Source of the DNA: an uncultured virus (IMG/VR IMGVR_UViG_3300009034_000863) | Lineage: Duplodnaviria > Heunggongvirae > Uroviricota > Caudoviricetes | Reading direction: 5' to 3' (one strand) | Virus record (IMG/VR): IMGVR_UViG_3300009034_000863 | Length of the DNA: 20,000 nt | Shown here: positions 317-20,000 of the stretch, piece after piece | Layout of the letters: every line of letters begins with the position of its first letter | Numbering within the stretch: the first letter of the stretch is position 1 | Notes under the pieces: generated by a model | Seen by the model: only the letters and a program-made list of their open reading frames with translations | Told to the model about the DNA's origin: nothing | Databases searched by the model: none | Program-made: the position numbers and the translations under genes

Positions 317-339
317 AAGCCATAATTATTTATTCTAAC

Positions 340-383: not shown

Positions 384-435
384 ATAATCTTCTTTATAAG
401 ATAGTGTATATTATATTAAACAGGGAGGACCAAGA

Positions 436-1191: not shown

Positions 1192-1200
1192 GGATAGGAG

Positions 1201-2553: not shown

Positions 2554-2604
2554 TATATATAAACAGGGAACATTAATATCATTACTGAGATCGAGAGGAT
2601 CTCA
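2554..2604 (+). promoter_or_regulatory. TATA-like promoter and 5'-leader hairpin upstream of the tail tube gene
   Basis: TATATATAAA at 2554-2563. Perfect hairpin TGAGATC-GAGAG-GATCTCA at 2586-2604, about where an archaeal transcript would start. RBS GGGAGGT at 2618-2626. Confidence 0.45.
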
Positions 2605-2634
2605 TATAAACCAAGTAAGGGAGGTAAAAATTTA

Positions 2635-3057: not shown

Positions 3058-3077
3058 AACTAAAAGGGGTATCACTC

Positions 3078-3542: not shown

Positions 3543-3892
3543 GTAAAGAAACGAGAAAAGTCGCTGAAATAGGGGACTTAGTGGATACAGAAGCAGAGAA
3601 ATGGGTACATATAGATCTAATAGACAAAGAAGTACGTATCAAGAAGATATTACTTGGTTCAATGGGGAAGATTTCTCAGCAAGCAGGTGAGGACCCATTT
3701 GAGAATCTAATATTAATGCTTCTTCAAGGTCTAATAGAACCCAAGCTTACGAGAGAACAGATTGAGAACATGGAACCTTTGAAAGCCAATGAGATTGGAA
3801 TGGCTATAGCAGACTTCAGTGGAATGACTAAGGAAGCAGCTAAAGGTGTAAGAAATTTATCAGAAGCGACTACGGTTTCTCCATCTGGTTAA
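3539..3892 (+). CDS. Tail assembly chaperone (lambda gpG analogue)
   Basis: Lies between tail tube and tape measure genes; 'LLQGLIEPKLTREQIENM' motif; RBS GGAGG near 3526-3532; slippery site near its 3' end. Confidence 0.75.
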   Translation: MSKETRKVAEIGDLVDTEAEKWVHIDLIDKEVRIKKILLGSMGKISQQAGEDPFENLILMLLQGLIEPKLTREQIENMEPLKANEIGMAIADFSGMTKEAAKGVRNLSEATTVSPSG

Positions 3893-4041
3893 TAATGCAT
3901 GAGTTTAACATAGCTGATCCAAAGGTGATAGCAAGCTGGACTCCAGAGTTTCTGTACTTTCTGTCAGAAGGGCTGGAGAGATATAACAAGGAAATATCAA
4001 GGGCAAGGAAAAAGGCATCGAGAAGAGCTAGGAGGAGATAA
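3539..4041 (+). CDS. Frameshift-extended tail assembly chaperone (gpGT analogue, about 167 aa) via -1 slip at A AAT TTA (3853-3859)
   Basis: In-phase X XXY YYZ heptamer in codons AGA AAT TTA. The -1 frame is open 3844-4041 and encodes IRSDYGFSIWLIMHEFNIADPKVIASWTPEFLYFLSEGLERYNKEISRARKKASRRARRR*. Confidence 0.75.
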
Positions 4042-4086
4042 CCTAAATATCCCCTATTTTTATATTAATGTAGGGAGGAATTAAAA

Positions 4087-7000: not shown

Positions 7001-10000
7001 AAGAGTTAAGAAAGAAACAAGATGCATTAAAAGAAGCTACCAAGAGAAAAGATAGAGAAGGCTTAAAAGCAGAGATTGAACATTTACAGGGTCAAGTTGG
7101 ACTTGGGGTAGCTTATAACCAATTACAGTCAGAAATTGTAAGGACCACTAAAGCAGGAAGAGATTATCAAAATAAAGCATTGAAAGGAATCAAGGCATCA
7201 TCTGAAAAAGTTATTAAATCGACAGAGAAACATAAGGGTACTCTTTCTGGATTGGCTAGACAAATTAGAATAAATGCTCAAGGAATAGTAGAAGCAGTAA
7301 AAGCATATAGGGAAGAACATAATTTGATTGGTAGAACTGAAAAGGCATTTCAAGCAGCAAAAGGAGCAGGTAAGAAGTTTGTAGGTCTTTTGAAATTAAT
7401 TGGTAGAGGTGCACTCGGAGTATTTGGAAGTTTTGTATTGATGAAAACAATACAGCCAATCTTTGAAGGATTAGAGGGTCCATTAGATGTTATAGCAGAT
7501 GTAATTGGAGATGTGGTAGATGTAGTTCAACCATTTCTAGATGCATTTGCAGACTTTATTGAGTTCTTAGGAGAATTAGGACCAGTTGGTAAGGCAGCTC
7601 AAATAGCTATAGCAGCCTTACTTATTGGTCTAATGTTGTTCCCTAGACAGATGATAGAAGCAGTAGCTGGATTAATTAAATTTATATTCCATATTGGAAG
7701 GGCAGGTACAGATTCTCTTACTATGGCTGAACAAGTCAAACAGAGTTTTACTAAAGTCGGACAGGCAGCACATGGAAGTATTACTCCACTGGAACTATTC
7801 AGGTGGGAACTTCAGATGATACATGATCAGGGATTAAAGACTGCTCAGTCACTTCAGTTAGTAACGAGTCAAATGCAAAGAGCTATTACTACAGGAGGAC
7901 ATGCACAAGGTCTATTGAAACCAACTGAAGAATTAGGACAGATGTTTACAGGTACTGCACAAGCTGAAATGGGTCTTGAAGGTGTTACCTTTGCTATGGA
8001 GAATGCTATAACTGTAGGAGATCAACTTGGAACTGTATTCGGAGATATGACAGAGAATATTCCAGTACAACAGTTAAGTCAGGGTGCTTATGGATTTACA
8101 TATATGACTCAGAAGGTAGAAGATGCCTCAGTTACTTTCGACAATGTAAGTAAAAATATGGCTTCAACTGTTCAAGTAACTTCTCAGATGGGAAAAGAAT
8201 TTACTGGAACAGGTAAAGAAATATCTTCTTCACAGAAAGGACTGAAGGGTGCAGTTAAAGGATTGAAGGGATTAGCAGCTGGAGCATTTAAGGGGTTTGC
8301 ATATCTTACTTTGTTTGGTATAGCTCTAGAAGCATTGCAACCTGTGTTAGAACCTTTAGCTGAAGCTATGAGAATGATGTTTGAACCTTTAGAACCAATA
8401 TTTGAGTTGATAGGAGACTGGGTAGAAGAGAATCCAGAATTAGTTCAAGGACTATTCCTTATGGTAGCAGGTCTATGGGCTGCTAATAAAATAATGGGTC
8501 CCTTTGGAGGAGTACTTGGAGTAATTGGTAAAGGATTAGGAGGATTAGGAACAGGAGCCGATACAGCGTCAGGCGGACTTAGTTCTTTTACTAAAGAAAG
8601 TGCTGCAAATCTTTTAGCAATAGCAGCTATAGTGGCAGCATTATCTTTACTAGTTAATTCATTTGCTAATATTGTTAAAGTCTTCAAAGAAAGTGAAATA
8701 TCTATTGATCAATTTGTAGAAGTTTTAGCTGCTGTTTCAGTTGCAGCTGGAGGATTAGTTGCTGTTATAGGATTGATAGGTAAAGCATTTGGAGGTTCAT
8801 TAGATACCGCTTTAGTCTTGGCTGGAATATCAGCAGTAGTCGCTGCTTTATCTCTAATGATTAATGCATTCTCAAGTTTTGTTAAGTCTGCTGGAGAATC
8901 AGGACAAGAAATAGGAGATATAATCAATTTAATACTTGCATTGTCAGTAGCTATGGCTATTCTTGTCGGTGTAATTGAATTAATGGCTGGAATAATGGGT
9001 AAGCTAGGTGGAACATGGAAGACTGCTTTGGGAGTAGGAGCAATAGCTGTAGTAGTAGGATCTTTATCTCTACTAGTAAACTCGTTTGGAGACTTCCTTA
9101 GAGCAGTTGGTGAATCTGGAATGGCAGCTCAAGACATTATCAATGTAATCAATGCAATGGCTGTAGCCATGGGAGCATTAGTAACTGTTATTGGAATAAT
9201 AGCAGTAATAATGGGTGCAACTGGTCCAATCGGATTAATAGCTGTAGGAGCTATAGCTGCTTTTGCAGCTCTAATAGCATCACTAGCTTTCTTAGTCACT
9301 GCTCTTGCTGAATTCATAAAGGGAATAGTTGAGATGGGTAAACACTGGAAGAAAGTTAAGAAGATGATATTAGAAATAGGTCCGACTTTGATAAAAGGAA
9401 TAGAAAATACTGTAGATGAAATATTGAGAGTAATAGAAACTAAAGTACCTGAATGGGTAAGGAAGTTTGCAGAAGGACTAAGGAAGATAGCAGATGCAAT
9501 AACTTCAAATGCTCCTAGCATTATAGATTCTTTCTCTAGAATATTTAGTTCACTTGCGGACATAGTGATAAAATCAGTAGATTCTATAATAAGTAATTTC
9601 GCTAGAGTCTTCACTGAAATCTTAGGTGTAATAGGAACGAAATCTGATGAGATAATACAGGCATTTGTTAGTATGGCAGTTGGAATAGCAGGTTCACTAG
9701 AAGAAGGAATATCAGAAATAGTAGTTGGATTCTCAAATATGTTTAGTGAAGTATTCTCTACTTTGGGAACTCAGATCCCATTAGTTGTAGAAAAATTCTC
9801 TACTATGATAGGTGACATAACAATTGCAGTAGGTACTGGAATAAACGATATTATTGACACATTTGGAGATATGGTTATAGATATAGCTAATAGGATAGGA
9901 GAGAAAGCGTCTCTAGTAATAAATGCTATAGGAGATATCATAAAAGGTATCATAAGTGAATTTGGTAAGAACGCTGAAGATATTGTCGATCTAGGTGGAG

Positions 10001-10749
10001 ATGTAATTGTAAATGTAATATCTGGAATGGTAGAGAAAGTGGATGATATTGGAGACGCTGTCAGTGGATTGATATCTGAGATTGGAGATGAAATAGTAGA
10101 CAATATAGACTTAATTACAGAATATGGAGGAAAAATAGTTACAGCAATAAAGGACGGAATAATAGCTGGAATAGATGTAGTGAAAGGAGCAGTTGGAGAA
10201 GTAATAGATCACATTATAGAAGGATGCCCAGGAGGAGGACTTAAAGATTTTCCATTACTAGGATATTCAGCTGGTAATCAAATGTCTAGGAGTATAGCTG
10301 AAGGTACAAAAGGAAGTATTGCACACATAAAAGATTCTGTTGGAGTGATAGGAGAAGTAATAGTTGATGGAGTAGAAGATATGTTGACTAACCTTGCTAG
10401 TATATTATGTTTCTCTCATATAATTCCAGAAGCAATAGAAGATGCCATGATACCTTCCTCTAGAGCAATGAACACACTTGGAAGTTCTTTAGAGAACAGA
10501 ATAAGTGATGTGTTTGCTACAACTCCAGAGTTAAGAGTAACTGGCAGATTTGAGGACCTAATAGCTAAATCAGGAACAGTTAATATCCCAGCTATGAGAG
10601 CAGTTCAGTCTCCTGCACAAACTAATTATAATCAATTCTACATAACTGTTCAGGCTAGAGAACTCTCTCCTAGAATGACAGATGCAGAGAAGAGGAATCT
10701 GGCAGAGGAGCTATCTAAGATGATAGCAGAAAGGACGAGGAGATCGTAA
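4087..10749 (+). CDS. Tape measure protein (2220 aa)
   Basis: Longest ORF, directly after the chaperone. Helical Ala/Gly/Ile-rich repeats, several hydrophobic segments, and a C-terminal 'TNYNQFYITVQ' strand plus helix typical of tape measure proteins. Confidence 0.9.
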   Translation: MGAAEPGRPVSNILIKCFIECRETTRRLKTLQKEQKKTMAAGKQLADGQKQIQNACSKTGNTLREVTEGLTELKDAYQFTPKIDVGATISKLEQLMKKEIELEKQFGKLQDSMMKKMKIGDVEGVKKLRSDITVLMGNMRELRETRKGMIEDLRREVPGIKVPLYVESKQAFQSIGELNRQRDEIKKRQEGVMKSWIKASKEGSTELAEGYRKQFETMNTELGGLQTTMESLVGPRISVDYMMTPPPQEVGRYMLQEINSIQERIKGIISEELPPQTVKIYPEVFEKLTPEKIVEGIPIVKVKQDVIQEVTRVLKEQLKIPEPAVQEIIRKVVEEPEELPRARAMVVEINKRLLMKNLKPLTEMQSTELEFAMMPTGMTELENSIRILKDARQSHIDNISAMVTGGKAATEAGKGRIEWEQRVADEYTKVLGLLARFPKIDIAKNIKAQARSLLEVLEQVKASIHALPSTPEVMKEGTKDLFIKCKVLCEEATQKVRELTTPKETQITYQAKVPVVRVEPLKVLVEYVTEKFPEIKIPELVQKIIREYEGDLPPETLKATVDYVLGKIPELPEAFQTIIFRRKELKEPQLKELTQFINLVHKEMPKVKPEDYIAEGLVEAPKVEKPEIPAAEVPITCKLICMKTTTKNLGKITKPKEVPIDLPHAGVKRSAGRINQSIGNIGAGMTGLTRSIGSSFEMMSDRAERFRATQLRWIGRDLMRIGFMITIYGRMFSETFQKAAKASVDLEGALMDVGDVLEDIADVIGTTIAPIIESLRGPLEMVQDFLETHEAIATVVGIVILLGTVFVTLASQLFSIIGTLTVLRFGLLQISGSALGAKTEVKGLGDMFKLLFEVLLGAAKVQQTIVQQLGLTQQETKAFSSGIDDSIVKMEAFLGSEQALNQAGYKLTDVLKQQEDAFKEIGKTSAEAGEKITSEYSTLHPVMSKLTESFEQTFKVWQEGKDAAAALLKNSEELRKKQDALKEATKRKDREGLKAEIEHLQGQVGLGVAYNQLQSEIVRTTKAGRDYQNKALKGIKASSEKVIKSTEKHKGTLSGLARQIRINAQGIVEAVKAYREEHNLIGRTEKAFQAAKGAGKKFVGLLKLIGRGALGVFGSFVLMKTIQPIFEGLEGPLDVIADVIGDVVDVVQPFLDAFADFIEFLGELGPVGKAAQIAIAALLIGLMLFPRQMIEAVAGLIKFIFHIGRAGTDSLTMAEQVKQSFTKVGQAAHGSITPLELFRWELQMIHDQGLKTAQSLQLVTSQMQRAITTGGHAQGLLKPTEELGQMFTGTAQAEMGLEGVTFAMENAITVGDQLGTVFGDMTENIPVQQLSQGAYGFTYMTQKVEDASVTFDNVSKNMASTVQVTSQMGKEFTGTGKEISSSQKGLKGAVKGLKGLAAGAFKGFAYLTLFGIALEALQPVLEPLAEAMRMMFEPLEPIFELIGDWVEENPELVQGLFLMVAGLWAANKIMGPFGGVLGVIGKGLGGLGTGADTASGGLSSFTKESAANLLAIAAIVAALSLLVNSFANIVKVFKESEISIDQFVEVLAAVSVAAGGLVAVIGLIGKAFGGSLDTALVLAGISAVVAALSLMINAFSSFVKSAGESGQEIGDIINLILALSVAMAILVGVIELMAGIMGKLGGTWKTALGVGAIAVVVGSLSLLVNSFGDFLRAVGESGMAAQDIINVINAMAVAMGALVTVIGIIAVIMGATGPIGLIAVGAIAAFAALIASLAFLVTALAEFIKGIVEMGKHWKKVKKMILEIGPTLIKGIENTVDEILRVIETKVPEWVRKFAEGLRKIADAITSNAPSIIDSFSRIFSSLADIVIKSVDSIISNFARVFTEILGVIGTKSDEIIQAFVSMAVGIAGSLEEGISEIVVGFSNMFSEVFSTLGTQIPLVVEKFSTMIGDITIAVGTGINDIIDTFGDMVIDIANRIGEKASLVINAIGDIIKGIISEFGKNAEDIVDLGGDVIVNVISGMVEKVDDIGDAVSGLISEIGDEIVDNIDLITEYGGKIVTAIKDGIIAGIDVVKGAVGEVIDHIIEGCPGGGLKDFPLLGYSAGNQMSRSIAEGTKGSIAHIKDSVGVIGEVIVDGVEDMLTNLASILCFSHIIPEAIEDAMIPSSRAMNTLGSSLENRISDVFATTPELRVTGRFEDLIAKSGTVNIPAMRAVQSPAQTNYNQFYITVQARELSPRMTDAEKRNLAEELSKMIAERTRRS

Positions 10750-10750
10750 T

Positions 10751-11209
10751 ATGGCATCAATAAAATTAAGAAGAATAAGTAATTCAGATGAAATAGAGTT
10801 AATACAGACAGTAGGAGACTACACATGTATTCTTACTAGATTAATTAAGAATGTAAAGCATACTTGGAGAAGAAGGAGAGGAAGTTTATCTACAAGACCT
10901 CTTAGAAGAGCCAAGGATAGGAATGAAGACTTGGTTGTTTATACTATGGAGGGAACATGCGATGAGACTACTGCTAAGAAGTTAGAAGAATGGAGTAAAG
11001 AGGCTGAAGAGTTCCGTCTGTACAGTCCAGCTGTAGCTGTTAACAATGATATATGTACTAATCACCAAAGTAGATGTCCTCCAACTGGAGGAGAATATGG
11101 TTACGACCTTGTCACTTTTAGTTCATGTGAAGTAGAACTATTGGCAGGTAAGAAAGAGGAATTTACTTGGACCTTCAGAATGTCTATGGAGGAAAGCAAG
11201 ACGTATTAG
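10751..11209 (+). CDS. Putative distal tail (Dit-like) protein
   Basis: 152-aa protein immediately after the tape measure gene with a tube-like beta pattern ('VYTMEGTC', 'FTWTFRMSMEE'). Mainly a positional call. Confidence 0.5.
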   Translation: MASIKLRRISNSDEIELIQTVGDYTCILTRLIKNVKHTWRRRRGSLSTRPLRRAKDRNEDLVVYTMEGTCDETTAKKLEEWSKEAEEFRLYSPAVAVNNDICTNHQSRCPPTGGEYGYDLVTFSSCEVELLAGKKEEFTWTFRMSMEESKTY

Positions 11210-11258
11210 GAGAGTATATATATGAAAGACAATAAATTAATAATGAGGGAGTATCTAA

Positions 11259-12824
11259 TTGGCTGAATTTGACGCTAAACCTCCACTGAGTATAATAAAC
11301 AAGACCCACTGGAACGCTTTGTTAGATCATGCTCTAGAAAGGGATACTTCTTTTAAAATGAGAAAAGATGGGTCAAGGTACACAGCTCTTTATGGGTATG
11401 GGACAAACCAGTCAGGAAAAATAGCATATGGGGGACCAAACGATACTGGTGGAGTAGATGGAACAGATTTCATAGCAGTTCTTCAGGCTGTTCACACTGC
11501 TATTTTAAACAGAGGAATGGGAGTGGTAAATTTTGCAGCTGGAACATATTATCCTTTAGAGAATGATACTTTATCTTGGCTTGCTTCTAACAGTTATTTA
11601 GTAGCAGAGGTTGGAACAATAATTGATATGTCATCGCTAGATTCTGTAAACAAATTAATTACTTTTGGTAATGTTCAAAATTGTGGAATGACAGGGTTTA
11701 AATGGTTGATGAATTCGACTCCAGTAACAGTAAATAAGGCAATTGGAATAGATGGGTGTACTAATGTTTCTATCATAAGAAATAGTTTCAAAAATCCTCA
11801 AATAGCAATAACAATTCAAGGAAGTAGTAGACCAGACAAGTTACTTACAATACGAGATAATTATTTCTATTCTGATTCTGAAGTTTCAGGATGTAAAGCA
11901 ATAGATGGTAATGTTGTAGCTGAAAATTCTATTTTAAATATTTCAAATAATGGATTTAAAAATATAGGATATCCAATAAGGTTACAAGGATTTGACTCTG
12001 GAATAATTGAAAATAACTGGTTTGATACAATTGGAAATAATTTTGGAAATTATATCATAGCAGTATTTGGTGGAAGTTATAAAATATCTGGTAACTTTTT
12101 CTTAAATGCAAAATATGGTGTAGATATTAGTACTGCGACAGAAAGATGTACAGCATCCTTTAATAGATTTGAGAATGTTGAATATTGTTTCTACACTGTA
12201 GATGTGGACAGATCTATATATATCGGAAATAAAGCCTATTACAAACATGCAGATATTTTACCAAGGATGTTCAGTTTACAGAGTTGTAATTATACTCAAA
12301 TAATAAATAATGAATGTATTTTTGAACACACATTTGGTTCACCAAGAGGAAAAGGTATTGCAAAACATAATCTAGCTCCGTTTTCAATGCAATATATGTT
12401 GGTTCAAGGAAATACATTTGAAGCTGATGTTGGTATAGAACTAGATACTGACGCATTAGGTGTAAGAGTAATTAACAATGATTTAAGTGCTTGTACAAAT
12501 GCTATAGACGACACATCTGTAGACACTATATACCGTTTTAATAGTGGACTAAATCCGTATGGTAAAATAACCAACCCATTTGATACTTCTAACGATCTTA
12601 TAAGTTTGAATGGATCAGCATCTTCTCCTTCAGCTGATACTTCTTATACAGCTAGAAATCTAGATATGATAATAACAAGTTCCCTAGAAACAGTAGTAGT
12701 TTATGACAATAACGATCTTGAAGTATTTAATGAAAATATGTCTCTATACGGATTTTATTTGCCTATAGGATTTAAAATTAAATGGGTAGATGTACCTTCA
12801 ACAATTCTAGTGTTTGGGACATAG
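11259..12824 (+). CDS. Right-handed beta-helix (pectin-lyase/NosD-like) tail spike or adhesin
   Basis: N-terminal 'DGTDFIAVLQA...GVVNFAAGTY' and repeated Asn-ladder motifs (IIRNSF, IRDNYF, ISNNGF, IENNWF, ISGNFF, VQGNTF, VINNDL). TTG start with RBS GAGGGAG. Confidence 0.75.
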   Translation: MAEFDAKPPLSIINKTHWNALLDHALERDTSFKMRKDGSRYTALYGYGTNQSGKIAYGGPNDTGGVDGTDFIAVLQAVHTAILNRGMGVVNFAAGTYYPLENDTLSWLASNSYLVAEVGTIIDMSSLDSVNKLITFGNVQNCGMTGFKWLMNSTPVTVNKAIGIDGCTNVSIIRNSFKNPQIAITIQGSSRPDKLLTIRDNYFYSDSEVSGCKAIDGNVVAENSILNISNNGFKNIGYPIRLQGFDSGIIENNWFDTIGNNFGNYIIAVFGGSYKISGNFFLNAKYGVDISTATERCTASFNRFENVEYCFYTVDVDRSIYIGNKAYYKHADILPRMFSLQSCNYTQIINNECIFEHTFGSPRGKGIAKHNLAPFSMQYMLVQGNTFEADVGIELDTDALGVRVINNDLSACTNAIDDTSVDTIYRFNSGLNPYGKITNPFDTSNDLISLNGSASSPSADTSYTARNLDMIITSSLETVVVYDNNDLEVFNENMSLYGFYLPIGFKIKWVDVPSTILVFGT

Positions 12825-12836
12825 GGAGTGTAATAG

Positions 12837-14561
12837 GTGACTGACTTTGATTCAAATGATTTTGAACCTATTGATTTTGAAGGGGAACAACAAGGGTTTT
12901 CTGATTTTCCTTCTTTAGTTAGAGTAATCTCTCTTACTCCAGACACCAGTACTCCAGAATGGAACATTAAATTATATAGAATAGTAAATGATGTGGAAAC
13001 TTCTATAAGTTTTGACACTGGTGGAGTAGAAGAATTAGAAACAGAACAGATTATGAATGAGGAAGTAGGTAATTTCAGAGTACGATTAACTAATGAAACA
13101 GGACAAGATGTAATGACAGCTGATGCTATCGAAATATATCTTAAACATGAAGATGATCCAGCTTTTACCAAAGTATTCACTGGTCAGGTAATCAAGGCTC
13201 CAGAAGAGGTAACAGATGAAGGAGATAAGTTTATGGATGTTACAGGTAACGATTGGGGAATACTTCTTAAAAGACATAAGTTTACCAGAACATTTTCTCA
13301 GACTACATTTGCAGATGTAATTAAGGACATAGTTGCTCCAATTACTAAAGCAGGTACTCCCACTCCAACAGAAAATAAGATATCAGTAAATAATGTAGGA
13401 GGTACAGAATTAATTGACTGGGAATTTAATAATGTCTACTACTGGGATGCAATTCAAGAACTATGTAAGAAATATGGTTACTGTTTCTATGTAGATGAAG
13501 ATAAAGACTTAAATGTATTCAAAGAAGGTTCCAGATATTCTCTTAAAGCCTTACAAGAAGAATGGTTAGAGAAATACAAGTATTACACTACAATTGAATA
13601 CATTATTAATTATCAGGAAGTCTGGGGCAGAAGGTCAACAACGTTCTTCCCTGAGACAAGAGATATCTGGACAGAGACTACTAGTAACTGGACAGCACTT
13701 GGATGGAACTATGCAAGTCAATCTAAACCAGTTACTTTAAGTTTAGGAACTCCTGGTCAAGCAGGGGTATATTATGTTAGAGCCTCTACTACTGATACTA
13801 TCCAAACTGCTTTAATACGATACAACATTCCTACTTCAGCAGATTGTTCCAATACATATTCATTCTTTAATATATGGAGGAAACAGACCCAGCCTTGGTT
13901 ATACAAGGTAAGGTTAGAAACAGATACTAGCAATTACTTTGAGACAGATCAATGGTTATATGATCCTAATTGGAATCTTAGAACATGGTCAACTAATACT
14001 TCTAGTGGATGGACATCAACAGGATCACCAGACTGGGGAGATATTAATTCAGTAGCCTTTAACTTAAAATATCCTGTTGCTTTATTTAATACTGCAAGAT
14101 TTAATTTGACTCGATTTGATACATTTGATGTTTTACTAAGTGAACAGTTTGATGATATGTACTTTGAAGGAACAAGAGTTATGGCTATTTCATATGATGT
14201 GAATTCTCAGAATACTTATGGATTAAGTGAGGGAGCAGATATAATAGATGAATCTTTAGTATATAACTCTCAGGCTCAGGCAGTAGCAGACTATATGGTT
14301 AGTAAATATAAGGATCCATTACCAGTAGTTGAAGGAGCAGAAGTGGAATATAATGATCTAACACTTAGACCAGGAGAATTAATAGATATCATAGTTCCAG
14401 AGATCACAGATGAATTCTTAATTATAAGAATAAGACATATTATATATCCAGAGAAGAACGTAGATCAGTTTATTCTATCTTACTTCGTACCAGGGGTAGA
14501 AGAAGAAATGAAATCCTTAAAAAGCAGAGTACACTCACTAGAATATCGTATAGAGGATTAG
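12837..14561 (+). CDS. Baseplate hub / Tal-like tail protein with an internal beta-sandwich domain
   Basis: Hub-like motifs 'KVFTGQV', 'DVTGNDWG..L', 'YWDAIQELCKKYGYCFYVDEDKDLNVF', 'SQNTYG', 'LRPGELIDI', and a terminal coiled coil. Confidence 0.75.
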   Translation: MTDFDSNDFEPIDFEGEQQGFSDFPSLVRVISLTPDTSTPEWNIKLYRIVNDVETSISFDTGGVEELETEQIMNEEVGNFRVRLTNETGQDVMTADAIEIYLKHEDDPAFTKVFTGQVIKAPEEVTDEGDKFMDVTGNDWGILLKRHKFTRTFSQTTFADVIKDIVAPITKAGTPTPTENKISVNNVGGTELIDWEFNNVYYWDAIQELCKKYGYCFYVDEDKDLNVFKEGSRYSLKALQEEWLEKYKYYTTIEYIINYQEVWGRRSTTFFPETRDIWTETTSNWTALGWNYASQSKPVTLSLGTPGQAGVYYVRASTTDTIQTALIRYNIPTSADCSNTYSFFNIWRKQTQPWLYKVRLETDTSNYFETDQWLYDPNWNLRTWSTNTSSGWTSTGSPDWGDINSVAFNLKYPVALFNTARFNLTRFDTFDVLLSEQFDDMYFEGTRVMAISYDVNSQNTYGLSEGADIIDESLVYNSQAQAVADYMVSKYKDPLPVVEGAEVEYNDLTLRPGELIDIIVPEITDEFLIIRIRHIIYPEKNVDQFILSYFVPGVEEEMKSLKSRVHSLEYRIED

Positions 14562-14572
14562 GAGGTGGAACA

Positions 14573-15244
14573 ATGGCAGGAATAAAACACAATCAAGACG
14601 TTGATTCTGATCACACTGTTTCAGAGGCATACTGGGAAGCGGACCATGTAGTTACAGGGGATGTACCATTTGGAGGACATCAGATAACTAACCCAGGAGA
14701 TGTAGACGGAGTAGATGTTGGTAGTCACCAACATACTGGAGTAGGAAGTCAAGGACCAAAAATAGATCATGGCGATTTAGATGGTAAAGGAGATGACGAT
14801 CATGCCCAATATTATAATAATGTTAGACACACTAAAGTATTACATGATGCTCTAGGAATTCCAGGATGGCATGGATCAACCAATACTATAAAAGTTGCTG
14901 CTCATGAATTTGTACCAACTTGGTCATATGATTCCGCTTATTTCGCTGCATCTCTTGTTCGCAATGTTGCTAATAAAACTAATCAATTGAATGCAACAGT
15001 TTATATTCCTTCAGGATATAAAGCTGTTTCGTATGTGATATATGCTGATGGCAATTATTCCGTTAGTTCTTGGGAATGTGACATTGATGATGATACTTCC
15101 ACTCCAAAAGGAGGAGGGAATGCTAATTCTACAATTAATATGACGGATGTTGCTTCTTCTTCAACAAATTATCTGGTATTAACTATATCTCTTACTTATC
15201 TTCAGGAAGTATGGGGAGCTAAAGTAAATATTCAATTGATTTAG
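14573..15244 (+). CDS. Short tail fibre / receptor-binding protein
   Basis: His/Asp/Gly-rich N-half ('HQHTG', 'DHGDLDGKGDDDHAQY') like fibre shaft motifs, then a beta-rich C-terminal domain. Last gene of the tail operon; RBS GGAGGTGG. Confidence 0.55.
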   Translation: MAGIKHNQDVDSDHTVSEAYWEADHVVTGDVPFGGHQITNPGDVDGVDVGSHQHTGVGSQGPKIDHGDLDGKGDDDHAQYYNNVRHTKVLHDALGIPGWHGSTNTIKVAAHEFVPTWSYDSAYFAASLVRNVANKTNQLNATVYIPSGYKAVSYVIYADGNYSVSSWECDIDDDTSTPKGGGNANSTINMTDVASSSTNYLVLTISLTYLQEVWGAKVNIQLI

Positions 15245-15245
15245 A

Positions 15246-15662
15246 TCACCTTAAAAATATAGAAACATCTTCACTAGTATAAAGTCTATAAACAAAATAC
15301 AATAGAAAAGGAATTGTAGCAATAAAGACGGTTTGATTTAACATTTCTAATATTCCATAGATAGATTGATAAAGAATTAAACTTTCTAGAATTATCTTGT
15401 CTTCAGGGTCATCTTCTATCAATCTAAATAAAAGGTAGAAAATAGCTACACCTAGACCTCCCATTAATTTTATTATAGTTAAAGAAAGAGGAATATCTGG
15501 AAGTCTTGTAATGACTGTATAATTTTTGTATATGTATCCTTCTCCGCCAAGAACAATTAAAGTTAAAAAGTGGGAATATTCATGTATAAAAATAGAAGCA
15601 GCTAACAATAATAGAAGACTTAGTAATAAATGTGATATTTTTATTCTAGGAATGAGGACCAC
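15246..15662 (-). CDS. Small multi-pass membrane protein with an HExxH motif (M50-like/zincin putative metalloprotease)
   Basis: 'IFIHEYSHFLTLIVLGG' at the end of a hydrophobic helix, downstream 'KLMGGL', about 3-4 hydrophobic segments; overlaps the terL 3' end. Confidence 0.6.
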   Translation of the reverse strand: MVLIPRIKISHLLLSLLLLLAASIFIHEYSHFLTLIVLGGEGYIYKNYTVITRLPDIPLSLTIIKLMGGLGVAIFYLLFRLIEDDPEDKIILESLILYQSIYGILEMLNQTVFIATIPFLLYFVYRLYTSEDVSIFLR

Positions 15663-16942
15663 CTTTTCTTCTTTCTTTTATTACCAGCTTTAAAGTACCA
15701 TGTTGAAGAAGGTATAGAAGCTTCCTGTACTCCTAACATTATACTGTCAACCCAATCGTCCTTCTCATGAGTATCAGCTGTGTAAACAGATAACTGCATT
15801 AAAGCTGTCTTATGCTTCTCTGGAATTTTAATTTGATCATGTTCTATCAAAGACTGCAATCCAAACTGCATCCTAGGTTTATTGCCTCTAAAAGATATTC
15901 CTTTGATCCTACATACTCTTAATTGCTGAAGATCTCTGATTAACCAAGGAATTGCTGCGTCAGCGTTTATTAACATCACATTATATTCTTTTACCAGAAA
16001 TGCTATTCTCTGCATAACAAAGTCTCTAGACTTTTCTGTCCATGCTTCAGCATAAACTAGGTACCATATCTCTCCTTCCTTTTGAAATATTGTGATAACA
16101 GTAGGGTTCTTAGAGCCAAAATCTACTCCCATATATGATGGAGTTTCTTTATCAAACTTACATTCTTTGACCATAACATTCTTCTGTAGTTTCTCAGCAT
16201 CAAATAATGATCCTCTAGGATTGAAAGAAGGTTCCCCTTTCCATTTAGCATTAAACTTGTCTGAAGATAACACTGCTTCTGCTTCCTTGATTTCTTGTAG
16301 AGATATCCAAGGACAGTCAAAGCTGGACCAGGACAATCTTTCCCAGTTAGGATACTTTTCTTTGTCACTCCACATCTCTATAAATCTTGAATAATAATAT
16401 TCTGTTTCAGGTGTAGCAACTAATAGGATCATTTTAAGTCCTATAATCCTAGAATAAGAATCATCTATGATTAAGTCTGGGATTAGAACTGCTTCGTCTC
16501 CTCCATATATGTCAGGATGTTCTCCTAGTACTTGTTTTTCAGATGCTGTAAAAGATTTGATCCAAGAACCATCTTTTAGATGAAGCTCTGTAACTTTAGG
16601 ATCTCCACTGATTAAATCTTTTATATATGGATGATCAATAAAATCACTAATAAATGAATGAAGCTTCTTTGCTTGAGTCCAGCTACCACTAACTAGTAGT
16701 ACCTTAATTGGTCTTCCAATTATCTGAGCATACACTGTTGTAAACCATAAAGCTATGACAGCTAGAAGCAAAGTCTTACCTGTCTTGTTAGCAGAACATA
16801 CCAGTACTCTTTTCTTTAGTGATTGCATAAACCCTAACAGTTTCTTCTGTTTATCAGATGGGGCAAAAGGAGTAATATCCTTCATAAACTGGCAGATATC
16901 TTGAAACCAGACTTTTACTTTTAATGACCAGTATAATGACAT
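15641..16942 (-). CDS. terL: Terminase large subunit
   Basis: Adenine-binding 'PSDKQ', Walker A 'SANKTGKT', Walker B '..DEA', coupling motif 'ATP', RNase H-like nuclease 'GVDFG..NPT', 'NAD' and 'DDWVDS'. Confidence 0.9.
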   Translation of the reverse strand: MSLYWSLKVKVWFQDICQFMKDITPFAPSDKQKKLLGFMQSLKKRVLVCSANKTGKTLLLAVIALWFTTVYAQIIGRPIKVLLVSGSWTQAKKLHSFISDFIDHPYIKDLISGDPKVTELHLKDGSWIKSFTASEKQVLGEHPDIYGGDEAVLIPDLIIDDSYSRIIGLKMILLVATPETEYYYSRFIEMWSDKEKYPNWERLSWSSFDCPWISLQEIKEAEAVLSSDKFNAKWKGEPSFNPRGSLFDAEKLQKNVMVKECKFDKETPSYMGVDFGSKNPTVITIFQKEGEIWYLVYAEAWTEKSRDFVMQRIAFLVKEYNVMLINADAAIPWLIRDLQQLRVCRIKGISFRGNKPRMQFGLQSLIEHDQIKIPEKHKTALMQLSVYTADTHEKDDWVDSIMLGVQEASIPSSTWYFKAGNKRKKKRWSSFLE

Positions 16943-17478
16943 TAGTATCCCCTATTCTTTAATCTCTCAGCGATAAGGTTCAAATATTCAGCTGGGATCC
17001 CTTCACATGCTTCTATGAAATCTTTGTACACATTTTCTTTTTTTACCTCAGTATCAGGGTAATATTCTTTCTTGATCTTTTCATATTCACTCATACATTT
17101 CACTATGTCCGTACTTAATCCTCTAAGCTCTCTAATCATAGAAGGCTTGAACATATTCTGTTTATTCTCAACAATTGATCCGAGTGCTATTTCTAATATA
17201 GACAATTTATCCTTTATTCTTTCTAAAGCACTTACGTCTTCATCTAATCTTTTCTTAAGATATTCAGAAGTGTACTTGTCTGCTTGCTTCATAGAATCTA
17301 AATATGGATACACATGATTCCTAAAATGTTTGCCTATAGCAGTGTCTGATATACGTTCATTCCTTTCCTTTAGCCATCTCTCTACTTGTTTATTGGTCCA
17401 TCCTTCTTCAAGAACTAGTTTATGTATTTCTGTCTTGTATTGACATCTACAAGTCTTACATCTAGCACTAAAGTACAT
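16942..17478 (-). CDS. Putative terminase small subunit (CxxC...HxxxH plus HTH, coiled coil)
   Basis: Translationally coupled to terL (TAATG overlap at 16940-16944). N-terminal CKTC, HTH-like 'GWTNKQVERWL...ISDTAIGKHFRNH', helical C-terminus. Confidence 0.65.
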   Translation of the reverse strand: MYFSARCKTCRCQYKTEIHKLVLEEGWTNKQVERWLKERNERISDTAIGKHFRNHVYPYLDSMKQADKYTSEYLKKRLDEDVSALERIKDKLSILEIALGSIVENKQNMFKPSMIRELRGLSTDIVKCMSEYEKIKKEYYPDTEVKKENVYKDFIEACEGIPAEYLNLIAERLKNRGY

Positions 17479-17520
17479 CCCTTTCCCTCATCAATACAGA
17501 TACGTCTAATATATATAAGG
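17479..17520 (-). promoter_or_regulatory. TATA-box promoter and RBS of the terminase operon
   Basis: The minus strand reads CCC-TTATATATATT (17518-17508), about 30 nt upstream of the ATG, with purine-rich GAGGGAAAGGG next to the start. Confidence 0.5.
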
Positions 17521-17668
17521 GATTAGGTTAAGAAGGTTTTAACGGTTAAATGGTTACGTTAGATACTTACCTTTTTTATATCATTGTATTGTCTTATACT
17601 CCTCCATACACAAACAACAGTCAAGGAGTAGTAAAGGTAATCCGTTATATGGAGTAATGTCGTCTATG

Positions 17669-17688
17669 GAAATTGCCTTTATATAGCT
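17669..17688 (+). promoter_or_regulatory. Putative early promoter, copy 1 (GAAATTGCC-TTTATATAG-CT)
   Basis: Purine BRE-like GAAA plus TATA box TTTATATA, about 35-40 nt upstream of the DDE ORF; near-identical copy at 19101. Confidence 0.6.
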
Positions 17689-17719
17689 TATTTGATGGAT
17701 GTTATGGTAAAGGTGTTTG

Positions 17720-18451
17720 ATGTTGAAACCTCAACATGAAGTTGATGAATACGCTATACTACAACAACACAACATAGGCTTAAGGGTTATTGGTAAGTGC
17801 TATAACCTTTCGCACAACACAATACGCAATAGGCTTAAGGAGAATGACTTAAACAAACCTAAGAGAAAATTTGACACAAAACTTACTATAAGGAGACAAA
17901 AACACAATTCGCATATATCCTTAAGTGAGGTTACTCACTTTATAGATGGATATAGGATAAACAACAATTCAATAAGACGTTTACACCATAGTAGAAAAAC
18001 AATAGATAACTCTCCTCTATTGTTGGCATTGTGTAACCGTAAAGAAGTTTTACACTATGAAGTCTTTAGTGTATGTAAAGAGACACAACAAAAATATAGT
18101 ATTCTCATTGATAACGCTTTGAAGAGAGGAATTAAGTTAAGGGTTGTTTGTATGGATAGGGTTTATAAGAAGTTGATTAAGAGACTTCAAAAACTCAATA
18201 TTGAAGTTGTTGTTTATGGTAAGACAACAATACGCCCATACAACACACAAATTGAAAGACAATTTGCGAATATGTCAAAAACTCTTTATGGAGACATGGC
18301 TTTTATTGAGACATTGAATAAAGAAGACTTAAGAGAATACTTCTTAGGGTTATGTGAAGTATTCTTCTATTACAAACAAAATAGGCTTTTAAGTTTCCTT
18401 CAAAAGAGAGAAATAGAGACATTGAAAATAATGGTTAGACAAAAACTTTAG
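17720..18451 (+). CDS. Compact HTH plus DDE (rve/integrase-core) transposase-like protein
   Basis: N-terminal HTH 'GLRVIGKCYNLSHNTIRNRLK'. Candidate triad D ('HFIDG'), D ('VCMDR'), E ('PYNTQIERQF') with 32 residues between the second D and E. RBS AAGGTG at 17710-17715. Confidence 0.65.
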   Translation: MLKPQHEVDEYAILQQHNIGLRVIGKCYNLSHNTIRNRLKENDLNKPKRKFDTKLTIRRQKHNSHISLSEVTHFIDGYRINNNSIRRLHHSRKTIDNSPLLLALCNRKEVLHYEVFSVCKETQQKYSILIDNALKRGIKLRVVCMDRVYKKLIKRLQKLNIEVVVYGKTTIRPYNTQIERQFANMSKTLYGDMAFIETLNKEDLREYFLGLCEVFFYYKQNRLLSFLQKREIETLKIMVRQKL

Positions 18452-18462
18452 AGGTTTGGCTA

Positions 18463-18609
18463 ATGTATGAAAGAGAAGACTTAACAAAACATTCTATTGA
18501 GACTTTAGAGAGACTTAGGAGAGAATGTCTAAAGAATGAGAGAGAGAATAGAGAGAGAAGACTAAAAATAGCTATTACTATTCTAAAGAAGAGAATGCAA
18601 AAGAGGTGA
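18463..18609 (+). CDS. 48-aa highly charged helical orphan protein (not in the ORF track)
   Basis: RBS GAGG at 18451-18454; MYEREDLTKHSIETLERLRRECLKNERENRERRLKIAITILKKRMQKR*; fills the gap between neighbouring ORFs. Confidence 0.65.
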   Translation: MYEREDLTKHSIETLERLRRECLKNERENRERRLKIAITILKKRMQKR

Positions 18610-18616
18610 GATTTAA

Positions 18617-18850
18617 ATGAGTGTTTCAATAGAAGACAACTTCACAACATTTAACGCTTTGGCAAATAGTGTTTGTATGACTAATTGTGAAAAACTCTTA
18701 GATGTTGAATGTCAAAATAAAAAGTGTGTAGTCAAAACATTAATTGCTAATGCCGATTACCATTATTTGATGGGATGGTATAACCTCTTACAACATGACT
18801 TACAAAAGATTTCTAAATATTTCGTTGTTGAAGTTGTGAATAAGGATTAA
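18617..18850 (+). CDS. 77-aa orphan protein with four Cys (CxxxC-x7-CxxxxC), possible metal binding
   Basis: Strong RBS GAGGTGA at 18603-18609; 'CMTNC...CQNKKC'. Confidence 0.65.
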   Translation: MSVSIEDNFTTFNALANSVCMTNCEKLLDVECQNKKCVVKTLIANADYHYLMGWYNLLQHDLQKISKYFVVEVVNKD

Positions 18851-19100
18851 CGGTTATGTGTATTACCGTTAAAATGATGAATGAAGGTTTGAAGGTTTAA
18901 GGATGTTTGCCGACTTAGAGAAAAACAACCGAAATATTTTAGGTAGTGAAGGAATAGAGAAACACCGTAAACTCAAACCCTTAAACCCCTATGAGAGAAG
19001 GAAGGGAGAGAATGTTATAATAACATTATTTCTCTTCTTATGGTTTGTTACCTTTTTTTAAGATAGAAATTACTTATAGAGGATAAGTAAACCTTATATA

Positions 19101-19119
19101 GAAATTGCCTTATTAAGCT
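19101..19119 (+). promoter_or_regulatory. Putative early promoter, copy 2 (GAAATTGCC-TTATTAAG-CT)
   Basis: First 11 bp identical to 17669-17679, then a TATA-like box and AGCT; about 35-40 nt upstream of the ORF at 19152. Confidence 0.6.
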
Positions 19120-19151
19120 ATGTTACGGAAAAGATAGAGGGAATAAAGACA

Positions 19152-19508
19152 TTGACACCCGAAACGATGAAAATAGAAGTTGATTTACAACGGAAGAAAG
19201 ACACCGCCACCGAATACACCGCCACAAAAGGCTTTTACTTCAAACCATCTTTAGACAAAAAAAGTGGAAAGCTCAAAAACGAAAGTGAGCTAACAAATAA
19301 CCAAAAGATAGAGAGGGAAGGTTACTTTTTACTTCCCAAACTCATTGACATAATGGGAAGAGAAAACTTCCTCAAAGCCGAATTAGCCTTTTTGAAAGGT
19401 TTAGAATCTACCATTGAAAAACAAACGGGTAAGACTTTAGACGGTGAAGACTTACCACAAAAAGAGGAAAACGCTAAGAAAACACAAAAAGAGAAAGTAG
19501 AAAACTAA
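19152..19508 (+). CDS. Lys/Glu-rich orphan protein, apparently monocistronic
   Basis: RBS GAGGG at 19137-19141, TTG start (ATG at 19167 is an alternative), own promoter upstream and terminator downstream. Confidence 0.7.
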   Translation: MTPETMKIEVDLQRKKDTATEYTATKGFYFKPSLDKKSGKLKNESELTNNQKIEREGYFLLPKLIDIMGRENFLKAELAFLKGLESTIEKQTGKTLDGEDLPQKEENAKKTQKEKVEN

Positions 19509-19576
19509 AAGCATAAAGCGTATTTTTCGCTTTAGTCTTTTAGTCTTTCACTTTCTTTCAACCCTTTATTTTTTTT
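19504..19576 (+). terminator. Stem-loop plus pyrimidine/poly-T tract
   Basis: ACTAAAAG-CA-TAAAGCG, loop TATTTTT, CGCTTTA-GT-CTTTTAGT (19504-19544), followed by a C/T-rich run and TTTATTTTTTTT. Confidence 0.65.
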
Positions 19577-19664
19577 ACTAAAAACGGAGTTTAGCAAACA
19601 ATGATTAAAAAGACAATTCGCCAAACCTTAAAGCCATTTTTGACATTTAGTATTAAGCCAAAAG

Positions 19665-19841
19665 CCAAAAGACAACTTAACGCTTTTACTCAACCAAAAG
19701 ACAACAATAAAAGCATAACTTTCAAAAGCACAATATATAATCTATTGCGAACTTTAAGCATAATACTGAAGCATAATCCAACGCAAAAGCATAATCATTT
19801 TTTGTTAAATCCTTCTATCTTATCCAAGCAAAAAGCATAAT
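19665..19841 (+). repeat. Direct-repeat array: AAGCATAA(T) x5 plus variants, CCAAAAGACAAC x2
   Basis: AAGCATAA at 19711, 19756, 19769, 19787, 19833 (also 19509); AAGCACAAT at 19726; CCAAAAGACAAC at 19665 and 19694. Confidence 0.7.
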
Positions 19842-19857
19842 GGGGTGATATGAAAGA

Positions 19858-20000
19858 ATGACAGCAAAAGGAATAATATCTGGTGAAGAGAGGGAAGTCT
19901 ATAAGAAACGAAAGGACTTCGACTTCAGCAGAACTCCTCTTGGCACAACCGTTATTTATCATAAGCCAAGAAAAGTGAGAAAAGAAGGAGAGGAAGTGAG
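19858..20000 (+). CDS. Hypothetical protein, 5' part (runs off the window)
   Basis: RBS GGGGTGA at 19842-19848; ATG 19858 MTAKGIISGEEREVYKKRKDFDFSRTPLGTTVIYHKPRKVRKEGEEV..., open to the end. Confidence 0.6.
   Translation, partial: MTAKGIISGEEREVYKKRKDFDFSRTPLGTTVIYHKPRKVRKEGEEV

Follow-up and report, generated by a model that had tools for sequence, protein, structure and literature searches.

In phages T5 and BF23, a long terminal direct repeat contains the first-step-transfer (FST) segment. On a wider scale, short palindromes are missing from the genomes of phages and archaeal viruses through the pressure of host restriction–modification (R-M) systems, and phosphorothioate systems are the known case of defence-linked motifs of three to four nucleotides, G(ps)GCC and G(ps)ATC among them. 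Phages of the T5 type withstand R-M of types I, II and III, CRISPR and Ssp if the FST region is free of recognition sites (PMC10644984), a precedent which an earlier, sequence-only reading of the locus described here had correctly invoked. In the Autographiviridae, sensitivity to type I R-M is conferred solely by motifs in the first-injected region, which varies and holds many anti-defence genes (PMC12455610). Among the motifs published for phosphorothioate systems are C(ps)AG, G(ps)AAC/G(ps)TTC and G(ps)AGC/G(ps)CTC (bioRxiv 10.1101/2024.06.03.597111).

The locus belongs to an uncultured tailed virus, of which a stretch of 20,000 nucleotides (hereafter the window) was analysed. CAG and CTG occur 600 times across the window and are absent from 17621..19765 (no strand assigned), a stretch delimited by word counts, shuffles and a k-mer scan. 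This largest gap measures 2148 nt (17618 to 19766), and the runner-up only 201 nt. The rate in the rest of the window would give 72 copies in the gap and the zone's own dinucleotides 41.8 (Markov); 1000 dinucleotide-preserving shuffles gave 41.7 ± 5.4, with a minimum of 28. The sequence-only reading had noticed this absence and roughly estimated an expectation of 40, which was correct, and the effect (0 vs 42–72 expected) is stronger than it had noted. Between 17626 and 19748, GATC, GTAC, CTAG, GAAC/GTTC, CAAG/CTTG and GGAC/GTCC are also missing, as it had listed by eye, and the count adds GACC/GGTC to them. Outside this stretch, the closest purged 4-mers are a CAAG on the left, at 17622, and a GAAC on the right, at 19749. 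AGCT (5 copies), CATG (3), ACGT (1) and TGCA (1) are retained inside, again as first read. The frequencies of CWG, GATC and GAAC in the zone are not normal by observed/expected k-mer ratios, a comparison which that reading had proposed and which has now been run. By word positions, a wider purged zone extends over about 17498–19748.

An unbiased scan of every 3- to 6-mer for significant gaps over the 20-kb window gave 13 such gaps, 12 of which overlap the zone. Per 2-kb window, up to 15 classes of 4-mers with an expectation of at least 5 are absent in the zone, and 0–1 elsewhere. Two families of words, CNNG (6 found where 65 are expected) and GNNC (7 vs 59), are almost wholly depleted; a joint count of CWG, CNNG and GNNC gives 13 (5 CNNG, 8 GNNC and no CWG) over about 2.1 kb of the zone, vs 82 per kb window-wide. 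The words leaking through this depletion are CATG, CCCG/CGGG, GCAC/GTGC, GAGC/GCTC and GCCC/GGGC. Some GN3C words (GAAGC, GAATC, GATGC, GCTAC and GGAGC) stay low in the zone. The GC content of the zone resembles that of the rest of the window, CG and CCG/CGG are enriched inside it, its borders are sharp, and its k-mer usage is unlike that of the rest. We take the purged set as discrete words and not as a physical spacing rule. A physical rule excluding a C...G pair was rejected, GNC, GC and CG being normal or enriched in the zone and CN3G being normal after removal of words that hold a purged sub-word; avoidance of hairpins was rejected as well, the depletion being strongest at spacings too short for loops.

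The purge extends over genes and intergenic DNA. All 21 glutamine codons of the zone are CAA. Resampling of synonymous codons (window codon usage, n=1000) gave 47.0 ± 5.6 forbidden words, with a minimum of 29, and 26.6 ± 3.6 CWG in the coding DNA of the zone; none of either is observed. Its non-coding parts hold 3 forbidden words vs 42.8 expected, and the non-palindromic purged words are missing in both orientations. Glutamine is followed by valine, alanine, aspartate, glutamate or glycine in 0 of 21 cases inside the zone vs 67 of 184 outside. Because coding and non-coding DNA are both covered and these glutamine neighbours are forbidden, the purge acts on double-stranded DNA, not on codons, and is maintained by selection. 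The sequence-only reading had already placed the purge on the DNA, and codon resampling, non-coding counts, both orientations and glutamine neighbours all bear it out.

Like the FST DNA of T5, BF23 and Tequintavirus, the zone is a limited segment free of restriction-type sites present elsewhere in the genome, and it shares with T5 FST small genes without assigned function and a repeat-rich non-coding border. It differs from T5 FST (about 10 kb) in its size of about 2.2 kb, its presence in an archaeal virus, its DDE integrase-type lead gene and the loss of whole 3- and 4-nucleotide words, including non-palindromic ones; a terminal repeat and a two-step entry are features of T5 FST. As in the leading region of the T7-like Autographiviridae, transcription runs away from the near border, and in a related genome (G002, below) the borders are nested one-sidedly. 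Unlike in that family, no viral RNA polymerase was seen, and many words are purged instead of one bipartite type I motif. GGCC, CCGG, CGCG, GCGC and CACG/CGTG are absent from the entire window, zone and body alike, and the loss of the first four resembles the genome-wide avoidance of restriction sites in phages and archaeal viruses. The zone differs from it as a second, local tier with a larger and different word set, confined to one operon. The purged 3-mer and non-palindromic 4-mers differ from classical type II sites, and the purged set is explained by no classical restriction enzyme. As to the Dnd, Ssp and BREX type 4 phosphorothioate motifs, GAAC/GTTC, CAG and partly GAGC/GCTC coincide with purged words; this likeness is a coincidence of words alone. 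We know of no phosphorothioate motifs among CTAG, GTAC, CAAG and GGWC.

The zone is a single operon on the + strand led by a DDE-type gene. The first and largest of its genes, which the sequence-only reading had overlooked, encodes a protein of 244 amino acids (17717..18451, +) that carries a helix-turn-helix at its N terminus, followed by a catalytic core of the integrase/transposase DDE type. Its triad, D77, D147 and E180, is invariant in all 27 sequences of the family alignment (A6), and the core was found to have the RNase H-like integrase fold. The protein has no Pfam family at E<=0.01, including rve, DDE_3 and HTH_Tnp, the 27 family members gave just single weak helix-turn-helix matches in Pfam, and the profile found nothing below E 0.08 among PDB sequences. 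The lead gene belongs to a previously unnamed, structurally clear DDE integrase-type family without a Pfam model. Unlike retroviral integrase, the Mu and Tn7 (TnsB) transposases and mariner, it is only 244 amino acids long and falls outside rve and the other Pfam families, and neither transposon ends nor a partner ATPase nor target duplications turned up alongside it.

Four small open reading frames follow on the same strand: a basic product of 48 amino acids (pI 10.3; 18463..18609, +), one of 77 with four cysteines (18617..18850, +), one of 52 with a hydrophobic C-terminal tail (18903..19061, +) and one of 118 (19152..19508, +). The 48- and 52-residue products have no Pfam or PHROGs family match; the 118-residue product has none in Pfam, PHROGs or PADLOC and no usable match in a protein atlas, and is 54% identical to its counterpart in the relative described below. 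The 77-residue product has an 81-residue counterpart in that relative (L001), and within its gene lies the sole nucleotide match inside the zone (18707–18783 to 54621–54697 of the relative's contig, 76.6% over 77 nt). Those open reading frames of the zone that were searched against Pfam, PHROGs and PADLOC gave no known anti-defence or other family, and none of the small ones encodes a strongly acidic DNA mimic.

The near border of the zone is flanked by terminase genes on the opposite strand. The large subunit, TerL (433 amino acids; 15641..16942, −), matches phrog_2 (E 6e-22) and Pfam Terminase_6C (E 2e-6), is 73% identical to its L001 homologue and flanks the zone without being part of it. 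A putative small subunit, terS (178 amino acids; 16942..17478, −), is proposed from position only: it lies directly upstream of TerL with an overlap of one base, and L001 has a counterpart of 178 amino acids in the same place. It has no family match in Pfam or PHROGs beyond a sub-threshold match to Clr5. Between terS and the lead gene, a divergent intergenic control region (17479..17716, no strand assigned) is nearly free of purged words, its sole island of them being CAGTCAAG at 17618–17625. A TATA-like TTTATATA at about 17677–17684, two blocks conserved with the relative (about 17652–17668 and 17690–17706, in an alignment to L005:13300-13600) and a 15-nt box, TATGGAAATTGCCTT, found at 17665 and again at 19097, are elements of candidate promoters.

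At the far border, an inverted repeat with 29-nt arms (83% complementary) is followed by a T-run (19492..19578, +) and likely forms the end of the transcription unit. The only Rfam match, at the same coordinates, was taken as chance (29.5 bits vs a gathering score of 70). Six copies of AAGCATAA on the same strand mark this border (19509..19840, +); the window holds seven copies, vs 1.46 expected, six of them here, and none of 200 shuffles reaches seven. In the relative, five of the six copies lie in the final 190 nt of the contig, at the far end of its zone. Both of its assemblies end inside the AAGCATAA cluster, 2.3 kb from the DDE gene and not at the terS-side border, and the window continues beyond the array.

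Relatives were sought with TerL, which found one virus among viral contigs, none among genome contigs and four loci among metagenome contigs (L006–L009), and with the DDE protein, P0003 and P0005, none of which had relatives among viral contigs; a distant blastn search with 17400–20000 against a phage collection gave no match. The closest relative, L, is one virus with two assemblies (L001 and L006, 99.99% identical), each from a metagenome other than that of the window. Its contig of 55,670 nt carries about 24 CWG per kb and none in its terminal 2264 nt, which adjoin terS, and this zone lacks the same 4-mers as that of the window. The window and the L contig each show a single copy of the zone; the L record is marked linear, without end repeats and 51% complete. 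Nucleotide similarity between the two viruses ends 74 nt past the start of terS, and the zone proteins are 20–54% identical. The same site, the shared control blocks and the border repeats indicate vertical descent of the two zones. For the more distant L007 and L008 (TerL 48% identical), upstream sequence could be read over 1.8 and 6.4 kb and is without a zone, and L009 was left out of the comparison as too short.

Distant carriers of the DDE family were sought with back-translated motif patterns from the family alignments A6 and A7; the pattern found in L010, a Bathyarchaeia MAG, arose by chance, no protein match accompanying it. A zone is found in all four viruses of the family with readable DNA: the window virus, L, G002 and G003. 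The gap scan found it without prior knowledge in three of the four genomes, the fourth giving a weak zone and unrelated gaps. In G002 (136 kb), 2-kb windows with at least four absent 4-mer classes occur solely at the DDE operon, and 8 of 12 significant gaps share a border at 76.7–77.9 kb. Their far ends are staggered, CAAG at 74417, CAGG at 74184, CCAG at 74135, GTAC at 73663, AGTAC at 72075 and GATC at 68197; the GATC- and AGTAC-free stretches extend 6–10 kb beyond a cassette-sized zone. These nested, one-sided borders fit polar exposure of the DNA. The zone of G003 (107 kb) is weaker: it lies at 51.5–56 kb, with a CTGC/GCAG gap of 4156 nt (P 1e-5) and at most one absent 4-mer class per 2-kb window. 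The G003 contig has a terminal direct repeat of 114 nt, with the zone in mid-contig; if these repeats are true ends, the zone is not first-entering in G003.

The purged word sets differ among viruses sharing the lead-gene family, and so does the setting. In L, as in G002 and G003, the zone stands at the head of a long run of genes, mostly small, that all point one way. The window virus and G002 have the DDE gene as their sole shared zone gene, the cargo being otherwise different. The sequence-only reading had proposed to look for the zone beside terS in related genomes: such a position holds for L and fails for G002, where the neighbour is nrdD, and for G003, so that adjacency to terS is not a conserved feature. 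Its assignment to an archaeal tailed virus gains support from G002, which shares the structural module as well as the lead gene; because G002 encodes two TFIIB/TFB homologues, the virus group is archaeal.

We interpret the zone as a first-acting operon kept free of the words that sequence-specific defences of the host would recognise, in the manner of T5 FST DNA and of the leading region of T7-like phages, and give this reading an even chance of being right. The operon would run rightward from the divergent control region beside terS, through the gene of the integrase-type DDE protein and those of the four small proteins, to the hairpin, T-run and AAGCATAA cluster. Selection on double-stranded DNA keeps it free of CAG, CAAG, GAAC and GGWC (on either strand), CTAG, GATC and GTAC. 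We infer host defences as the selecting agent: most likely, short-word defences (restriction enzymes and similar) would still be active when the operon, acting or entering first, must be intact and transcribed. The genome body, in which the purged words occur at normal or raised frequency, would presumably be exposed later, or be protected or repaired after the operon products have been made; the small open reading frames would be candidate anti-defence genes, as the sequence-only reading had supposed. The words avoided genome-wide form a second tier. Several observations weigh against this reading: the mid-contig position and weakness of the G003 zone, the ends of both L assemblies at the far border, the missing zone in the upstream sequence of L007 and L008, purged words unlike classical type II sites, and small products that resemble no known anti-defence protein. 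A literature search for a prokaryotic or archaeal enzyme reading CWG found none and yielded just eukaryotic CWG methylation.

Other explanations may be considered for the same pattern. The operon or the virion could carry nucleases of short specificity that shred host DNA, the operon surviving for lack of their sites and the remaining viral DNA being then absent from the cell or protected. The purged set does resemble a few degenerate rules (CAG, CWWG except CATG, and GDWC), and the lead gene encodes a protein of nuclease (RNase H-like DDE) fold. DDE integrase-type enzymes, however, act on defined DNA ends, not on 3–4-bp words, searches of the zone with Pfam, PHROGs and PADLOC revealed no nuclease of restriction type, and the word sets vary between viruses with the same lead-gene family. 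In favour of such a scheme, how T5 spares its own DNA during the destruction of host DNA is stated to be unclear (PMC10644984). We consider it improbable.

An equally tentative place is given to the zone as a DDE transposon with its cargo, which would move between viruses or hosts and avoid restriction words throughout. The integrase/transposase fold with its intact D,D,E triad, the variable cargo and neighbours, and the border repeats would suit a mobile element; the repeats of G002 are copies of a 33-nt palindromic element that stands at either border and again within the zone. Against this, no terminal inverted repeats flank the zone of the window, its AAGCATAA array standing on one side only; vertical descent is indicated for the window virus and L, and the long GATC- and AGTAC-free stretches of G002 are unexplained by a discrete element. 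The ends of both L assemblies, in the repeat array near the DDE gene, would be compatible with a Mu-like transposable virus; but no MuB-like ATPase was found in the zone with Pfam and PHROGs, the window continues past the array, and G003 has end repeats with the gene in mid-contig.

A DNA-targeting system of the host or the virus might instead read bare CAG on either strand, possibly by a phosphorothioate-type or modification-dependent mechanism. The CAG-rich body would then perhaps offer sites for a protective modification brought by the virus, L having a BrxP-like PAPS-reductase protein, and the DDE operon, being free of CAG and seven other words, would act unmodified and uncut. This has a small chance of being correct.

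It is also conceivable, and rather doubtful, that the virus modifies CAG and other words in its body while the first operon stays unmodified, perhaps so that host transcription machinery can read it without help, and so lacks both modification and restriction words. CAG/CTG is the top over-represented trinucleotide in the body of the window (1.68x composition, 1.22x Markov) and the second most over-represented in L, with none in the zone, and CpG shows the opposite pattern. L encodes a protein with a PAPS-reductase domain whose best match in the defence library is BrxP (E 1.2e-9), and G002 an N6/N4 DNA methylase besides its two TFB homologues. The BrxP and CysD matches are nevertheless weak, under curated cut-offs, and CAG sites are spaced through the body in a Poisson-like manner (CV 0.94 and 1.01), with a largest gap of the expected size and no sign of selection for even coverage. 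In well-studied phages, modified bases are not generally known to block host transcription.

Sharp borders and a distinct k-mer usage might finally suggest a chimeric join or a recent insertion from a CWG-less genome, an alternative which the sequence-only reading had itself raised; it is already refuted, along with chance, because the diverged L, assembled from two other metagenomes, keeps a purged zone at the same place, with homologous flanks, a diverged interior and, in the window, a GC content similar to the rest.

Taken as a first-acting operon, the zone would have a meaning beyond this virus. The purged words would be a fossil record of the attacks on the virus, and those of the window virus point to archaeal host defences that would read 3-base and non-palindromic 4-base words. 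They may mark, from the nucleotide sequence by itself, the operon of a large archaeal virus that must act first. Applied to viral metagenomes, a simple k-mer gap scan could map first-acting regions and, in their small orphan genes, anti-defence candidates. With the lead gene of the operon comes a new DDE integrase-type family, apparently tied to purged zones.

The window is the part of a tailed-virus genome that serves structure and packaging. It holds a 2220-aa ORF, ORFs for tail proteins and, on the minus strand, TerL (15641-16942), upstream of which lies a 178-aa ORF, a putative terS assigned from position only. A divergent intergenic region adjoining terS opens a zone from which short DNA words are missing. 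CAG or CTG occurs 600 times in the 20 kb, with a longest gap of 2148 nt (17618 to 19766) and a second longest of 201 nt. The rate found elsewhere in the window predicts 72 for this gap; the zone's own dinucleotides give 41.8, and 1000 dinucleotide-preserving shuffles gave 41.7 +/- 5.4 with a minimum of 28. Between 17626 and 19748, GATC, GTAC, CTAG, GAAC/GTTC, CAAG/CTTG, GGAC/GTCC and GACC/GGTC are all at zero, and AGCT, CATG, ACGT and TGCA are present. The sequence-only reading had reported such a purged block; our recount found its counts and rough expected CAG/CTG number correct (41.7-41.8 from dinucleotides), so that the observation is confirmed and extended; two unbiased k-mer statistics mark the same place. 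Per 2-kb window, 15 of the 4-mer classes with an expectation of at least 5 are missing at the zone versus 0-1 in other parts, and 12 of the 13 significant gaps in a scan of all 3- to 6-mers overlap it.

We call forbidden the words CAG, CAAG, GAAC, GGAC and GACC on either strand, with CTAG, GATC and GTAC. The nearest one before the zone lies at 17497, and a single island, CAGTCAAG, stands at 17618-17625. The zone carries five plus-strand ORFs of, in order, 244, 48, 77, 52 and 118 aa, the first and last of which are both preceded by a 15-nt box adjoining TATA-like sequence; the small ORFs remain orphans. Beyond them, an inverted repeat (arms of 29 nt) is followed by a T-run and, at the far border, by six same-strand copies of AAGCATAA (19509-19840). 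Forbidden words reappear at 19728-19862, and the next ORF begins at 19858.

What is purged is a set of discrete words. Summed over the zones of the window and of a relative, the L virus, the observed counts are zero for CAG (128.5 expected), CAAG (33.8), GAAC (34.2), GGAC (15.4) and GACC (12.0), each counted on either strand, and for CTAG (18.5), GATC (14.8) and GTAC (13.4). GAGC, on either strand, is partly lost (3 versus 11.0 expected), CATG is not lost (7 versus 11.6), and GNC, GC and GAC/GTC frequencies are normal in the zone. CG (37 vs 16) and CCG/CGG (18 vs 4.6) are enriched there, the genome being very CpG-poor elsewhere. The avoidance of GGCC, CCGG, CGCG, GCGC and CACG/CGTG, which number zero in the whole window and nearly zero in the whole L contig, is a separate, genome-wide tier. 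Outside the zone (window and L contig, pieces L003-L005), the first four are absent against 17-22 each expected by composition, and CACG/CGTG occurs 0 times versus 62 expected in the window and once versus 110 in L. These absences add to a general CpG depletion that is itself strong. In the genome bodies, CAG/CTG is the most over-represented trinucleotide of the window (1-17497) and the second most of L (1-53340), at 1.7 times the number expected by composition, with a Poisson-like spacing in both.

The purge acts on DNA and not on codons, as had been proposed from the sequence and is borne out by three lines of evidence. When synonymous codons of the five ORFs were resampled with window codon usage in 1000 runs, 47.0 +/- 5.6 forbidden words (minimum 29) and 26.6 +/- 3.6 CAG/CTG were obtained, against an observed 0 for both. 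The 618 non-coding bases of the zone hold 3 forbidden words versus 42.8 expected. Finally, each non-palindromic purged word is missing in both orientations, which points to double-stranded DNA, not RNA, as the target. The constraint extends into the zone's protein sequences: because CAG and CAA followed by G are both barred, glutamine never precedes V, A, D, E or G (0/21 in the zone vs 67/184 outside; 0/8 in the L virus zone).

The same depleted zone, sought next to terS in a relative, was found in the L virus, whose TerL is 73% identical to that of the window. Its IMG/VR contig L001 (55,670 nt) and a second assembly from another metagenome, L006, represent the same virus (99.99% identical). 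CAG/CTG runs at about 24 per kb throughout the contig and falls to zero beyond terS, over the final 2264 nt, where the same 4-mers as in the window zone are missing. Nucleotide similarity stops 74 nt past the terS start, and within the zone only 77 nt are alignable; protein identity is 54% for the 118-aa ORF and 20% for the lead gene. Conservation extends to two short control blocks and to the AAGCATAA array. The blocks, TAATGTCGTCTATGGA and ATTTGATGGATGTTATG, flank a TATA-like box (window 17652-17706, L005 13481-13535) within diverged intergenic surroundings; a palindrome closer to terS, TTAACNGTTAA, is likewise conserved. A matching zone in so diverged a virus rules out chance, assembly error and recent insertion, and an artefact is excluded. 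These data also show the purge being kept up as the zone's sequence turns over. The L array comprises five same-strand copies and a cut one (L005 15481-15670), within which the two independent assemblies end, 155 nt apart; they may stop there at a physical end or at a junction that varies between strains.

Other features of the L contig deserve mention. TerL and terS are its sole opposite-strand ORFs (2 of 52 called; 51504-53342, L005 11504-13342), the zone resuming the main direction. A 230-aa PAPS-reductase-domain protein (L003 10647-11339; best PADLOC match BrxP, E 1.2e-9; NCBIfam matches CysD and CysH under curated cut-offs) adjoins a 978-aa ligase-domain protein and a SAM methyltransferase. 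In a large sugar-modification cluster (L003 11341-L004 2392), an epimerase is accompanied by several glycosyltransferases and methyltransferases and by a radical-SAM protein whose matches are viperin-like and MoaA-like; G002, a more distant virus, has similar genes.

The product of the lead gene (244 aa) had no match in Pfam, PHROG, PADLOC or NCBIfam, and 27 cluster-level relatives among 1.84 billion proteins. In the family alignment D77, H91, D147, K169 and E180 are invariant, and a P-Y-N-x-x-A-E-x-x-F-x-N-I-x-K block is present. The AlphaFold model (pLDDT 90.4) is matched by Foldseek to Mos1 transposase and retroviral integrases. These residues and model matches class the lead-gene product as a DDE protein of the integrase/transposase type that has an N-terminal helix-turn-helix and belongs to a family without a name so far.

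G002 (136,445 nt, estimated 89% complete) has a family member 32% identical to that of the window and shares the structural module common to the window and L. It encodes two TFIIB/TFB homologues; the virus group is therefore archaeal, as the sequence-only reading had held. Its sole strongly purged zone spans about 3.5 kb, from the DDE gene through seven or eight small ORFs downstream of it, and is without CAAG, CTAG, GTAC, GATC, CAGG and CCAG, CAG and GAAC in general not being lost. On the promoter side of the DDE gene, eight of 12 significant k-mer gaps have a common border; at the other end they stop at staggered points 3 to 10 kb downstream. Just upstream of the common border, words purged downstream cluster within 150 nt (contig 77707-77855, L011 about 10793-10941): GATC three times, CTAG and GTAC twice each, CCAG and CAGG. 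A palindromic element, TGAAACGG-N12-CCGTTTCA, occurs in four copies, at both zone borders and inside (L011 7483-7515, 7855-7887, 9727-9759, 10586-10613); these may be operators or transposase-binding sites. G002 (L012-L018) also encodes a serpin, a KaiC/RadA-like ATPase, a UDG and three ligase-domain proteins, with inteins in nrdD, a DNA methylase and two other proteins.

G003 (107,029 nt, estimated complete, with an end repeat of 114 nt) has a weaker zone, about 4.3 kb long and without GCAG, GCTAG, CAGGA and others, around its DDE family member; it again heads a long one-directional gene array, yet lies mid-contig. The examinable flanks of L007 and L008 (TerL 48% identical) hold no zone. The link to the terminase genes drawn from the sequence is local to the window-L pair. 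Unrelated to the DDE locus, a 4.2-kb stretch lacking CTAGA/TCTAGA-type words (P 6e-8) falls on a 2008-aa minus-strand ORF of G003 (18048-24074).

Together, these data show selection against particular short words on duplex DNA. This selection is limited to a single operon, keeps its place, differs in its word set from virus to virus and, in one genome, is graded in one direction. The known process with this effect is that DNA exposed before the virus gains protection evades the sequence-specific defences of the host, which we regard as the best explanation here, at about even odds. The mechanism proposed earlier, whose key step would be first entry, is plausible and has good precedent: T5-like phages are described as resisting R-M, CRISPR and Ssp unless the first-step-transfer DNA carries sites (PMC10644984), and in T7-like phages motifs are reported to matter only within the first-injected region (PMC12455610). 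Exposure could be graded by staged entry or by timing alone; in the latter case the operon would have to survive uncut for as long as its products had not yet protected the remaining genome or permitted its repair; ATP-dependent ligases are encoded by L and G002, the two relatives scanned for gene content. The asymmetric words of 3 and 4 nt among those purged do not resemble classical type II sites. Phosphorothioate motifs among those published, C(ps)AG, G(ps)AAC/G(ps)TTC and G(ps)AGC, coincide with several purged words, which is a lead and not a result. Among rivals to host-defence avoidance, the zone might lack the words for self-immunity to a viral nuclease, might be a mobile DDE cassette, or might be an island deliberately left without modification in a genome that is modified.

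New here are the extent of the purge, to the loss of an entire trinucleotide, the fact that it occurs in archaeal viruses, the two tiers of word avoidance and the tie of the purge to a new DDE family.
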